Program-made: the position numbers and the translations under genes
Virus record (IMG/VR): IMGVR_UViG_2740892268_000008
Reading direction: 5' to 3' (one strand)
Source of the DNA: a virus
Taxonomy: Duplodnaviria; Heunggongvirae; Uroviricota; Caudoviricetes
Length of the DNA: 6,480 bases
Notes under the pieces: model-generated
The model's database searches: none
Seen by the model: the letters and a program-made list of their open reading frames with translations, nothing else
What the model was told of the DNA's origin: nothing
In this document: positions 734-5,668 of the stretch, in pieces
Position numbering within the stretch: the first letter of the stretch is position 1
How the letters are laid out: each line of letters starts with the position of its first letter

Positions 734-1802
734 TCATCCGTTCTGGCTGACTAAATCCTGTACTTCCCGAACCGTCTGCTCAAAACGTTCAGTCTCCAGC
801 TCAACGCCAATTGCACGACGCCCGAGCGCCAGTGCCGCTTTCACTGTCGAACCCAACCCCATGAAAAAATCTGCAATCAGGTCACCCGGACGACTGCTAG
901 CGNNNNNNNNNNNNNNNNNNNNNNNNNNNNNNNNNNNNNNNNNNNNNNNNNNNNNNNNNNNNNNNNNNNNNNNNNNNNNNNNNNNNNNNNNNNNNNNNNN
1001 NNNNNNNNNNNNNNNNNNNNNNNNNNNNNNNNNNNNNNNNNNNNNNNNNNNNNNNNNNNNNNNNNNNNNNNNNNNNNNNNNNNNNNNNNNNNNNNNNNNN
1101 NNNNNNNNNNNNNNNNNNNNNNNNNNNNNNNNNNNNNNNNNNNNNNNNNNNNACCCGGGCAAACAGCGCCTGTAATTTCAGATAATCGCTTTCATTCGGC
1201 AACTGCCACTGACCGGCACTGAACCAGTGCGACACCATGTTTTTCTTTCCTGTGGCATCTGCAATCTGTTTTGCCGTTATCCCCAGGGCAGCTCGCGCAT
1301 CACGAAAGTAAGAAATCAGCGGGGCCATCACATGCTGTTTCAGTGCACTGCCCTTCGCCGCATACCCGGCATCTTTCGGACGATACGGCCCCTGATAATG
1401 TTCCGCGAACAGAATGCGCTCTGTGGCGGGGAAATACGCCCGCAGGCTTTCCTTGTTGCATCCGTTCCAGCGTCCGGACGGCTTCGCCCAGATAATATGG
1501 TTCAGCACACTGAAGCGTTCACGCATCATGATTTCGATATCAGATGCCAGGCGATGACCACAGAACAGGTAAAGACTTCCGGCAGGTTTCAGCACCCGCC
1601 AGAACTGCGCCAGACACTGGTCCAGCCACTTCAGGTAATCATCGTCGCCCTTCCACTGGTTATCCCAGCCCTCAGGCTTCACTTTAAAGTACGGCGGGTC
1701 CGTGACTATCAGGTCAACAGAATTTTCGGGTAACGACCGGATAAATTCCAGGCAGTCGGCGTTGATTAACTCACAACTGGATATTTTTACAGTATTAAGC
1801 AT
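734..1802 (-). CDS. DNA methyltransferase, beta-class (N6-adenine or N4-cytosine), probable orphan phage methylase; middle masked by N
   Basis: N-terminal part (ORF 897-1802) carries the catalytic DPPY motif (LIVTDPPYF). C-terminal part (ORF 734-1162) carries the AdoMet motif region PGDLIADFFMGLGST...LGRRAIGVELE. DPPY before FxGxG is the beta-class order. The two parts are in different frames as numbered across the 250-nt N block. Confidence 0.8.
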
Positions 1803-3196: not shown

Positions 3197-3570
3197 TTTT
3201 TGACCTGCCCTTCAAGCATTATGGGATAAATCTTCACCCCCAGACGTCCACCAGATACTGGCTGAGCACGAACGATATTGATTTCATCAAACTGCTCATC
3301 GTCCATTAGCAACCCCGCATGCGTCAGCGCATCCAGCGGCGCTTTCAGAATATTGTCCAGGTCACGGCGGCGCTTATCCGGTGGTTCTGCAATAATTTTT
3401 ATTGCCAACCTTCCGGACAGGCTTAATTTCAGCCGCTGCTGGCGAACAATAAGCGCCACTGCCCGGCGANNNNNNNNNNNNNNNNNNNNNNNNNNNNNNN
3501 NNNNNNNNNNNNNNNNNNNNNNNNNNNNNNNNNNNNNNNNNNNNNNNNNNNNNNNNNNNNNNNNNNNNNN
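3193..3570 (-). CDS. rusA: Crossover junction endodeoxyribonuclease RusA (Holliday junction resolvase); N-terminus masked
   Basis: Visible C-terminal 88 aa contain PDKRRRDLDNILKAPLDALTHAGLLMDDEQ, matching the RusA catalytic region ([30 protein letters not shown] in E. coli RusA, from memory). The frame stays open into the N block; the 5' end is estimated from a ~120-aa RusA length. Confidence 0.8.
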   Translation of the reverse strand, partial: XXXXXXXXXXXXXXXXXXXXXXXXXXXXXXXXXXRRAVALIVRQQRLKLSLSGRLAIKIIAEPPDKRRRDLDNILKAPLDALTHAGLLMDDEQFDEINIVRAQPVSGGRLGVKIYPIMLEGQVKK

Positions 3571-3571
3571 N

Positions 3572-4640
3572 NNNNNNNNNNNNNNNNNNNNNNNNNNNNN
3601 NNNNNNNNNNNNNNNNNNNNNNNNNNNNNNNNNNNNNNNNNNNNNNNNNNNNNNNNNNNNNNNNNNNNNNNNNNNNNNNNNNNNNNNNNNNNNNNNNNNN
3701 NNNNNNNNNNNNNNNNNNNNNNNNNNNNNAAATCATCAGCCTTTGTTCCCATCCCTCCCAGTCCATGACCAATGATGTGATGCGGATCATCTGCCTGATT
3801 GCCACACGTCATGCATTTCTGCGTTTTTACCCAGCGCGTGTATACAGGCATCTCTTCCCGTTGTGATTTCTGGCGCTGGAGATACTGAGCCGGTGACTCC
3901 GGATCAACGGCAATGCTGACCACCGTCTTTTCCTGTGGTGGGTTCTGTTGCTGGTGGACGTGAGGCAGTAACGCAATATTTTTTGTGCGCTGCTTCAGTA
4001 TGCTGGTGGCTGTCTGCTCTCCCGGTATGATGTCGCTTTCACTGTACACAGAGCGAATTTTTTCCGCACGCAACCCCAGCGAACGACGTAATACCGCTTC
4101 CGGTAGCGCGTCCGCCACCTGATTGCGGACCGCCCACCAGGATAATTCAGCCAGAGATAATTCACGCTCCTGCGTACCGCTTATTGCGTGACCGATGACG
4201 TCAATCATCCATGCTGACAGGTTTTGATGAGCAAGTTGCTCGAGTGATTCGGATGTCTGGTCACGCAGCTGGTTGTCGCAGTGCCAGCACAACACCATTG
4301 CGCCGGTACCATAACGGTGAATGACGGTTTCGCTGTGATGATAATCGCCGTGTGGCCACTGGCAGGATTTAATATGGCGCAACAGCCAGTCAGACAATGC
4401 ACCAGCACCACCAGCAGCACGAATCACCCGTGCGTTACTGAAAAACGGCAGCAATGTTTTGTCTTCCACCAGCGGCTGGCGAGCGGCAGGAACGACCCCG
4501 GACGGCAGATTACGCATGCTTTTTGGTTCCGGCTCCACCAGTATTCTGCCGTTATGGAATGCTGACATTGATTCACGGCCTGGCTTAACGATAACCAGAC
4601 CGAGTTCCGGTACCAGAACAGGTCGAAGTAATACCCGCAC
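3572..4640 (-). CDS. DUF968/YdfU-like prophage protein with an HNH-like CxxC...HH motif; 3' end masked
   Basis: Long minus-strand ORF from a GTG at 4640 (GGAGG 4 nt upstream; alternative ATG at 4568) into the N block, sitting just upstream of rusA and Q as YdfU does in Qin-type prophages. CMTCGNQADDPHHIIGHG lies just before the mask. The 3' coordinate is an estimate. Confidence 0.55.
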
Positions 4641-4715: not shown

Positions 4716-4997
4716 TTATCCAGTGACGGTAGTCGAGGCTAAGGGCTTTTTTAACCTCGCATCCGCGCCTGCGGTAACACTGAATGAGCCATTCGGCCTG
4801 TTCTTCAGTGCATGGGGGATGCTGGTACCAATCAGATTTAAATGCGTGAGAGCGCCGCCCGTGCCTGCTGGCAAAGACGGCTGAATTATCAGAATTGTGT
4901 AGTCTGGAAGGCAGTGGCTGACAATAGCGCCATTCTCAACGCGCACAGTATAGAGGCCATCTTCACTAAAAATTTCACGTAATTCTTCGATTTTCAT
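4716..4997 (-). CDS. Hypothetical small protein (93 aa) in the position occupied by rem in Qin-type prophages
   Basis: ORF with GGAAGGA about 8 nt upstream of ATG 4997. It is in the same frame as the downstream DUF968 ORF, separated by one TAA at 4716-4718 and 25 sense codons. Confidence 0.5.
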   Translation of the reverse strand: MKIEELREIFSEDGLYTVRVENGAIVSHCLPDYTILIIQPSLPAGTGGALTHLNLIGTSIPHALKNRPNGSFSVTAGADARLKKPLASTTVTG

Positions 4998-5080
4998 CAA
5001 CAGAATCCTTCCAGATAAATAGCACTCCCCTGTTCGGGGTCCATCCCTCTTCTCCCTGCGCGCTACTTAAGTATTTTTGA

Positions 5081-5117: not shown

Positions 5118-5149
5118 AAAATAAAAACAAAAACCCGCCGAAGCGGGTT
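5118..5149 (-). terminator. Rho-independent terminator at the 3' end of the hok transcript
   Basis: Minus strand AACCCGC-TTCG-GCGGGTT (7-bp stem, TTCG loop) followed by TTTGTTTTTATTTT, about 70 nt downstream of the hok stop. Confidence 0.7.
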
Positions 5150-5217
5150 AAGTGTGGGTGCATTGAGGATGCCTGACCCATCAGAGGTGGCGAGGGATTT
5201 CTCCCCCGCCTGGTCTC

Positions 5218-5373
5218 TTACTCCTCAGGTTCGTAAGCTGTGAAGACAGCGACCTCCGTCTGGCCGGTTCGAATTCGTACCTCGCAGAGGTCTTTCCTCG
5301 TTACCAGTGCCGTCACTATGACGGTTAAACAGATGACGATCAGGGCGATTAACATCGCCTTTTGCTGCTTCAT
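5218..5373 (-). CDS. hokD: Hok/Gef-family type I toxin (51 aa small membrane toxin), HokD/RelF-like
   Basis: MKQQKAMLIALIVICLTVIVTALVTRKDLCEVRIRTGQTEVAVFTAYEPEE matches my recollection of HokD/RelF and is unmistakably Hok family. AAGGAG lies 9 nt upstream of ATG 5373. The track's 70-aa ORF is an in-frame upstream extension from ATG 5430. Context differs from K-12 hokD because no relBE lies upstream. Confidence 0.85.
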   Translation of the reverse strand: MKQQKAMLIALIVICLTVIVTALVTRKDLCEVRIRTGQTEVAVFTAYEPEE

Positions 5374-5549
5374 AGCCTGCTTCTCCTTGCCTTTCGGCAC
5401 GTAAGAGGCTAACCTAGATTTGCCGTTCATAGATTGAGCCTCAGATTAATGTTAAGCGTCTTGCCGGACGCGTAATGTTAACTGGGGCTTTTCTCTATCT
5501 GCCTTTTGGTGTTCATGCCTGAGACAGATAGCCTCAAGCACCCGCTGCA

Positions 5550-5577
5550 ATTCTACTTAACTCTCCTTTTCCCGCAA
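5550..5577 (-). promoter_or_regulatory. Sigma70 promoter candidate for the hok mRNA
   Basis: Minus strand TTGCGG (-35, 5572-5577), 16-nt spacer, TAGAAT (-10, 5550-5555). From here to the terminator at ~5120 the transcript would be about 420 nt, the size class of known hok mRNAs. Confidence 0.35.
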
Positions 5578-5584
5578 ACCGTTT

Positions 5585-5668
5585 TTATCCCCAGCGGCAA
5601 ATCGAATACACCACCAGCGCCACCGCCATCGCAATTCCTACCGTTGTTAATGCTTCAGGCCAGGTCAT
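5585..5668 (-). CDS. Small hydrophobic peptide (27 aa, [27 protein letters not shown]), candidate single-pass membrane peptide
   Basis: Absent from the ORF track because it is short. ATG overlaps the stop of the 114-aa gene (ATGA), GGAGGA lies about 10 nt upstream, and the product has a ~17-residue hydrophobic core. Confidence 0.35.

Follow-up and report, generated by a model that had tools for sequence, protein, structure and literature searches.

A toxin gene of the hok family lies in a prophage without relBE beside it, which raises the question of how it is controlled: the gene may belong to a complete type I toxin-antitoxin locus with its own antisense RNA, it may be what is left of such a locus, or it may be expressed as part of a phage operon. 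The gene is found in a 6,480-nucleotide stretch of viral DNA (IMG/VR record IMGVR_UViG_2740892268_000008), which is called the window here. The original prediction had recognised the architecture of an autonomous hok/sok-type locus, and the sequence features that it listed were all found, at or a few bases from the coordinates it had assigned to them. The locus is very probably an autonomous hok/mok/sok cassette of type I and of the hokD/hokW subtype, intact and with its own promoters and terminator, and it is situated among the nin-like early genes of a lambda-like prophage.

Positions 5577-5122, minus strand: hok/mok/sok type I toxin-antitoxin cassette, self-contained
Positions 5373-5218, minus strand: hok, encoding HokD (51 aa), assigned by Pfam HOK_GEF, by identity to K-12 HokD and by the hokD annotation in E. 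coli genomes
Positions 5386-5383, minus strand: Shine-Dalgarno (SD) sequence of hok, GGAG
Positions 5430-5218, minus strand: mok frame of 70 codons, in frame with hok (an N-terminally extended Hok), taken from the open reading frame list

The 51-aa product had been taken for a Hok/Gef toxin. It matches Pfam HOK_GEF (PF01848) with E=1.2e-23 and 82.9 bits (cut-off 22), and is identical to E. coli K-12 HokD at 51 of 51 residues (100%). A TACG motif is present at 5232-5235 on the minus strand, where the UAC codon of Tyr47 is followed by a G.

The mok-like reading of the in-frame ATG upstream of hok, with its own GAGG, is also supported. The GAGG at 5442-5439 is followed after 8 nt by the mok ATG at 5430, which opens a frame overlapping all of hok, and this frame matches PHROG 251 'MokW-like host killing' with E=7.7e-33. 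The arrangement, including the common stop codon, is that of mokW/hokW and mokC/hokC, and translation from the mok AUG would be predicted to yield a 70-aa extended Hok. For comparison, a set of 63 distinct cassettes was used, which all specify the identical toxin and differ little elsewhere; in 57 of them, that of the window included, mok and hok are in one frame. Six cassettes (L008, L027, L030, L044, L063 and L084) carry a 2-nt deletion and a 1-nt insertion, leaving a 19-codon mok, the TGA stop of which overlaps the hok ATG (ATGA).

The transcript that would carry both frames is delimited by the following elements:

Positions 5577-5550, minus strand: hok promoter, with -35 TTGCGG (5577-5572), a 16-nt spacer and -10 TAGAAT (5555-5550), read from the sequence
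Positions 5543 to about 5126, minus strand: predicted full-length hok mRNA of about 418 nt (418-422), with an inferred 5' end
Positions 5149-5122, minus strand: intrinsic terminator of the hok mRNA, a stem at 5149-5132 plus a T run, from the terminator scan

The promoter-like TTGCGG-16-TAGAAT of the original prediction is present, and its TAGAAT aligns with TATGAT, the -10 box of R1 hok that was validated by suppressor mutations (PMC9841398). Across cassettes, the hok -10 box is kept, while the -35 region is variable. The match to consensus is poor for both promoters of the cassette (8 of 12 positions for hok, 7 of 12 for Sok), and a generic promoter scan with a threshold of 9/12 detected neither. 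The hok promoter was missed because its -35 box fits the consensus in only three of six positions, and the Sok promoter because only 7/12 positions fit. Both promoters, being below the threshold of the scan, were placed by homology. The leader opens with GGGTGCTTGAGG from 5543, downstream of the -10 TAGAAT on the minus strand, and the predicted start at about G5543 gives it a length of 170 nt, as had been estimated. The terminator sets the transcript at about 418-422 nt, close to the roughly 420 nt proposed before.

The predicted start is also where a covariance model begins. The Rfam family RF01794, named 'sok', matches positions 5543-5368 on the minus strand over its full model length (1-157) with 112.4 bits and E=9.5e-26 (gathering score 59), a match well above what chance would produce, its position 1 aligning at 5543, 7 nt past the hok -10 box. 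The match spans the region from the predicted mRNA start to the hok AUG, on the sense strand of hok. It was considered as Sok itself and rejected: since it is 176 nt long, starts at the 5'-terminal element tac and ends at the hok AUG, it represents the hok leader. A pipeline that relies on RF01794 as 'sok antitoxin' would therefore annotate sok on the strand opposite to the real gene and give it more than double its length. Two further Rfam candidates in the 3' UTR and terminator of hok (5128-5215, minus strand), isrK with 25.7 bits (threshold 50) and rsmX with 23.3 bits (threshold 56), were set aside as chance or terminator-driven matches, probably produced by the shape of the hairpin and terminator.

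The elements of the antisense gene are located on the opposite strand:

Positions 5387-5415, plus strand: Sok promoter, with -35 TTGCCT (5387-5392), a 17-nt spacer and -10 TAACCT (5410-5415), read from the sequence and by homology
Positions 5422 to about 5495, plus strand: predicted Sok RNA of about 71-77 nt, from the ends of three annotated Sok RNAs and from its fold
Positions 5422-5435, plus strand: single-stranded 5' tail of Sok
Positions 5436-5490, plus strand: Sok hairpin, from the fold
Positions about 5492-5498, plus strand: U-rich 3' end of Sok, UUUCUCU after the hairpin

A Sok-like RNA had been expected on the plus strand at about 5430-5500, and a Sok RNA is indeed predicted at about 5422-5495. 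The accompanying statement that a convincing promoter or terminator could not be recognised does not stand, as both TTGCCT-17-TAACCT and a hairpin with a U tail are present. By alignment, the ends of the annotated sokW (VT2-Sakai, AP000422), sokC and sokB (both K-12, NC_000913.3) could be transferred to the window: the 5' end maps to 5422, and the 3' end to 5492-5498. The start at G5422 lies 6 nt past the -10 TAACCT, and the predicted RNA folds with -33.2 kcal/mol (z=-5.7). The promoter aligns with TTGCGC-17-TATCCT of the R1-type locus, and promoter and hairpin are identical in the window and in VT2-Sakai sokW. In the study of sokW, the mutagenic primers YO-421/422 alter the motif TAGGTTA, which abolishes antitoxin activity (PMC8621323); TAGGTTA is the complement of the -10 box TAACCT of the window. 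Because of its homologous position to three annotated Sok RNAs and to the mutated -10 box of sokW, the Sok regulator is identified at the level of sequence, and the window copy would be expected to express it. For the regulation of the toxin, which the original prediction had regarded as unresolved, there is an identifiable Sok gene.

For the sense RNA, the control elements known from hok mRNAs were placed by folding and alignment:

Positions 5543-5532, minus strand: tac (translational activator element), GGGUGCUUGAGG, the 5' end of the mRNA, paired with fbi in the minimum free energy (MFE) fold
Positions 5490-5482, minus strand: ucb (upstream complementary box), AAGCCCCAG, paired with the mok Shine-Dalgarno region at 5444-5437
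Positions 5442-5405, minus strand: Sok-target stem-loop, comprising the SD GAGG (5442-5439), the mok AUG (5430-5428), the loop and dcb AGCCUC (5410-5405), from folds of the cut RNA
Positions 5210-5189, minus strand: 3'-UTR hairpin GGCGGGGGA/UCCCUCGCC, a helix of the MFE fold
Positions 5168-5156, minus strand: fbi (fold-back inhibition element), CCUCAA(U)GCACCC, the complement of tac with one bulged base

The predicted hok RNA (5543-5126) has an MFE of -169.2 kcal/mol (z=-6.7 against shuffled sequences, none of which folds equally well). The long-range pairing of fbi and tac, for which folding had been suggested as a check, was recovered as a helix of 12 bp between 5543-5532 and 5168-5156 in both the MFE and the centroid fold. 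In the same full-length fold, ucb (5490-5482) pairs with 5444-5437, where the mok Shine-Dalgarno region lies. With fbi removed by a cut at 5172 or 5178, tac shifts to ucb and the mok start is found in a stem-loop closed by GAGGCU/AGCCUC (dcb); the loop of this Sok target is complementary to the 5' tail of Sok. When it is cut at 5183 or 5187, a 5' metastable hairpin is formed, in which tac pairs with 5525-5515, and ucb still covers the SD-mok region. The modelled folds are consistent with a tac/ucb and SD-mok/dcb switch as in the R1 model, with an outcome that varies with the chosen 3' end; this switch has been described for R1 (PMC9841398; PMC1635323). As a control, the method recovers the tac/fbi and ucb/SD-mok pairings in a 398-nt R1-type hok mRNA, and the switch is not shown by the same method for the R1-type mRNA cut at 361 nt.

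Alignment to other hok loci, which had been proposed as a second check, placed the elements of the cassette in register. Across the 63 distinct cassettes, 94.6% of the structure is paired, compared with 34-44% when the pairing partners are slid, and changes on both sides of a pair occur at 7 pairs against 1.8 expected; they are located in the 5' hairpin, the Sok hairpin and the terminator. The tac sequence is invariant, and the tac/fbi helix is 100% paired without any variation, so that it provides no covariation evidence, for or against, in this set. The 3'-UTR hairpin (5210-5189) is 99.5% paired and alternates between G-U, A-U and G-C pairs. By analogy to the description of R1 (PMC1635323), this hairpin likely serves as the road-block that stops 3' trimming.

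These data bear on the view that the locus is a decayed or unregulated hok remnant, comparable to the chromosomal copies of K-12, in which the toxin survives while the RNA control or Sok is defunct. Such decay has precedents, since K-12 hokD lacks the whole leader and IS186 adjoins K-12 hokC; in the window, both promoters are weak in comparison to the consensus, and the neighbouring rem looks disrupted past about 30 residues, so the prophage may be degenerating. Yet every element of the cassette is present and in register, and the Sok promoter and hairpin match those of a functional sokW without a difference. The leader is base-for-base identical in two of 80 IMG/VR loci with the identical toxin and near-identical in most, and the sole difference in fbi (U instead of C) falls on the bulged, unpaired base. 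A remnant is therefore very unlikely, and an intact cassette is the reading followed below.

All genes of the window are co-oriented with hok. Upstream of hok are small phage ORFs with PHROG matches only, which do not assign a function to them, and downstream follow rem, DUF968, RusA, the antiterminator Q, a DNA methylase and two tRNA genes. This order recurs in GF4, the best match in E. coli, where the genes run from cI/cro and the replication genes through hokD, rem, DUF968, rusA, Q and tRNAs up to the lysis genes; it assigns the cassette to the nin-like early part of a lambda-like prophage. The earlier designation as a prophage regulatory region is loosely right; the exact site is the nin-like delayed-early region, upstream of rem/DUF968/rusA/Q. 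Searches of the window with Pfam, NCBIfam and PHROGs found no RelB, RelE or transposase/IS genes, and homology to K-12 stops at about 5387, which agrees with the description of the locus as lacking relBE.

Several details of the neighbourhood were recorded. Directly upstream of the cassette, a hydrophobic, unannotated ORF of 27 codons (5585-5668, minus strand) starts in an ATGA overlap with the stop codon of a 114-aa ORF and ends 7 nt short of the hok -35 box; profile searches gave no family match for it, and its end is kept in VT2-Sakai and GF4. On the other side, the rem homologue (4716-5000, minus strand) matches K-12 Rem and PHROG 340 over the first ~30 residues only and then diverges, so it is probably frameshifted; rem of GF4 is also annotated as a pseudogene. 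The sole promoter-like site reported by the generic scan, TTGAAG-18-TAGAAT (5109-5080, minus strand), is outside the cassette, past the hok terminator, and may be the rem promoter. A tRNA-Arg(UCG) and a tRNA with a CAU anticodon are located downstream of Q and the DNA methylase (regions 534-693 and 897-1802, minus strand). The latter is called Met by ARAGORN, and in GF4 the first of the two tRNAs past Q is annotated as tRNA-Ile. Lambda-like and Stx-type phages typically have a cluster of tRNA genes after Q. Runs of N at 280-486, 903-1152 and 3470-3729 (207, 250 and 260 bases) cause runs of X in the ORFs that cross them; none is in the hok cassette.

The co-orientation of hok with all flanking phage genes would also fit a non-autonomous gene, transcribed mainly by read-through from the early-right operon, in which case the 'promoter' upstream would be incidental. 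The terminator scan found no terminator between the upstream ORFs and hok, relF/hokD of K-12 is co-transcribed with relBE (PMC3598666), and production of HokW requires RecA and prophage induction (PMC8621323). However, the stretch that is similar among cassettes extends from the hok -10 box to a few bases past the T run of the terminator, in many different and unrelated flanking contexts. In addition, tac functions only as a free 5' end, which is exactly where the Rfam model begins, and the terminator is conserved. Expression mainly by read-through thus appears most improbable. The same cassette is found in VT2-Sakai with different neighbours, on plasmids and in 78 phage records, and its boundaries, judged by alignment, fit a self-contained unit of about 450 bp. 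The claim of an autonomous hok/sok-type locus in a prophage is supported by this combination of an own promoter, tac/fbi/ucb/dcb, mok and a terminator between unrelated flanks.

The mechanism proposed for this autonomous cassette follows the R1 paradigm, with folding and alignment as its support in the window. The weak promoter (5577-5550) would yield a stable mRNA about 418 nt in length, the 5' end of which (tac) would pair with fbi near the 3' end, while ucb would mask the mok ribosome-binding site; due to these two pairings, the full-length RNA is proposed to be neither translated nor bound by Sok. Slow 3' trimming to the hairpin at 5210-5189 would remove fbi, after which tac would pair with ucb and the mok start region would refold as a stem-loop. 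The 5' tail of the unstable Sok would then attack the loop, and the duplex would be degraded. Once the supply of Sok ends, mok would be translated, and hok along with it, and the small membrane toxin Hok would depolarise the cell. As the mok and hok frames are joined, the product may also be the 70-aa extended Hok.

Least certain of all is what the cassette does for the prophage. The hokW-sokW locus of Sp5, the closest relative with experimental data, is turned on during prophage induction; it doubles phage release, and deletion of the locus halves release (PMC8621323). Mitomycin C induction depletes sokW, and HokW rises in a RecA-dependent manner (PMC8621323). As hokW is located at a different place in its phage, the role in phage release may not transfer to the window. 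Prophage retention and the exclusion of other phages are possible alternative roles; R1 hok/sok excludes T4. According to work cited in a preprint, the chromosomal hokA, hokB and hokC are reported not to mediate post-segregational killing (bioRxiv 10.1101/2025.08.07.668861), so that a maintenance role should not be assumed. Since hok is co-oriented with the early-right operon, transcription entering from that operon after induction might lengthen the hok transcripts and also disturb the Sok promoter, which is convergent to it. Such read-through during induction can coexist with autonomous expression in the lysogen, at least as an idea derived from the gene arrangement.

A 26-nt hypervariable patch at 5413-5438 affects both strands (alignment columns 106-131) and covers the mok AUG, codons 2-6, the target loop and the 5' tail of Sok. 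Among the 63 cassettes, pairwise diversity is 0.276 in the patch (5438-5413), compared with 0.013 at third-codon positions of hok and 0.03-0.10 elsewhere in the UTRs. The patch occurs in 17 haplotypes, from which 12 different Sok tails are predicted; within the first 11 nt, the median number of differences between these tails is 4. All 17 variants fold to the same target hairpin (-9.6 to -15.5 kcal/mol). In pairs of cassettes from the same genome in IMG/VR, the Sok allele differs in three of the only four pairs available, with about 87% expected by chance, a sample too small to have statistical power. It is conceivable, if rather doubtful, that prophage hok/sok cassettes have diversified into Sok 'specificity groups' that do not cross-react. 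If so, the Sok of one resident prophage could not silence the hok of another, in a manner similar to immunity or incompatibility groups. Alternatively, the diversity could reflect relaxed constraint on the loop and on an unimportant Mok N-terminus, together with recombination. A literature search, the coverage of which left out key older hok papers, found no description of such specificity groups. The hypervariable Sok recognition patch is the only lead of research value in this locus, and it may bear on antitoxin specificity between co-resident prophages.

Given the presence of a Sok antitoxin gene, the locus itself is ordinary and of a kind already described. The cassette type is annotated as mokW/hokW/sokW in AP000422 and as hokD in RefSeq, functional work on it is available (PMC8621323), and prophages are reported to be enriched in hok (bioRxiv 10.1101/2025.08.07.668861). 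The understanding of hok/sok is unchanged by this copy. What becomes possible is the base-level placement of the plus-strand Sok gene and of the mok frame in a very common prophage cassette, for which hokD alone is annotated in most genome records. In 3,829 of 5,426 complete E. coli genomes, there is a copy that matches 80% or more of the 501-nt query; the number of matching places in an E. coli genome has a median of 2 and reaches 9.

The closest known system is hokW-mokW-sokW (VT2-Sakai/Sp5, 933W), the cassette of which is ~92% identical to that of the window. It is a working type I pair, in which HokW is toxic and sokW under its own promoter protects (PMC8621323). Protection is lost in a 'promoter-less' sokW mutant and comes back in part when sokW is supplied in trans (Takada et al. 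2021, PMC8621323). Both systems have the leader, the Sok -35, -10 and hairpin, and an in-frame mok, and both are found in lambda-like prophages. They differ in the C-terminus of the toxin (...VDYESEK in HokW, ...TAYEPEE in the window), in the Sok 5' tail and target loop (CCATGCTGAACACATG in the hokW allele, CTATGAACGGCAAATC in the window) and in the 3' end, which is divergent past fbi. Furthermore, hokW is located among other neighbours and, unlike the window copy, does not adjoin rem/DUF968/rusA/Q.

The K-12 hokC (gef)/mokC/sokC locus resembles the window in the first ~60 nt of the leader, which are nearly identical, and in the 57-nt offset that keeps mok in frame; the annotated start of sokC maps exactly to 5422. 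This locus is chromosomal and not part of a prophage, and it has IS186 inserted alongside; its Sok hairpin is shorter, and its toxin differs in sequence. The paradigm, R1 hok/mok/sok (parB), contains promoter, tac, ucb, SD-mok, mok AUG, 3' hairpin and fbi in the same order and spacing as the window, shows the same predicted tac/fbi closure, and likewise has the Sok promoter inside the mok/hok overlap. HokW and R1 Hok share 44% identity (PMC8621323). The toxin of the window is closely related to HokW and similarly distant from R1 Hok. The offset between mok and hok is 58 nt in the R1-type locus L004, which puts R1 mok out of frame, whereas it is 57 nt in the window and keeps the frame; the Sok hairpin is ~16-20 nt longer in the window, and the window has a separate terminator past fbi, while the R1 mRNA ends directly after fbi.

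In contrast, K-12 hokD (relF) in the cryptic prophage Qin has the identical toxin, the same 3' UTR, fbi and terminator, and rem/ydfU(DUF968)/Q downstream, in the order relB-relE-hokD-rem-ydfU-ydfT(Q) in MG1655. K-12 matches only query positions 214-499, which correspond to the window from ~5387 downstream, ~14 nt before the hok AUG. The hok SD, coding sequence, 3' UTR, fbi and terminator are common to both, and nothing further upstream is; relBE takes the place of the hok promoter, tac, ucb, mok, the Sok target and most of the Sok promoter, including its -10 box. The 80 IMG/VR loci divide into 77 with the full leader, two with the K-12 relE junction and one with another rearrangement. By sequence comparison, the window carries the common, complete form, and the K-12 relBE-hokD locus is a truncated, rearranged one, which makes the textbook K-12 arrangement the exception and not the rule.
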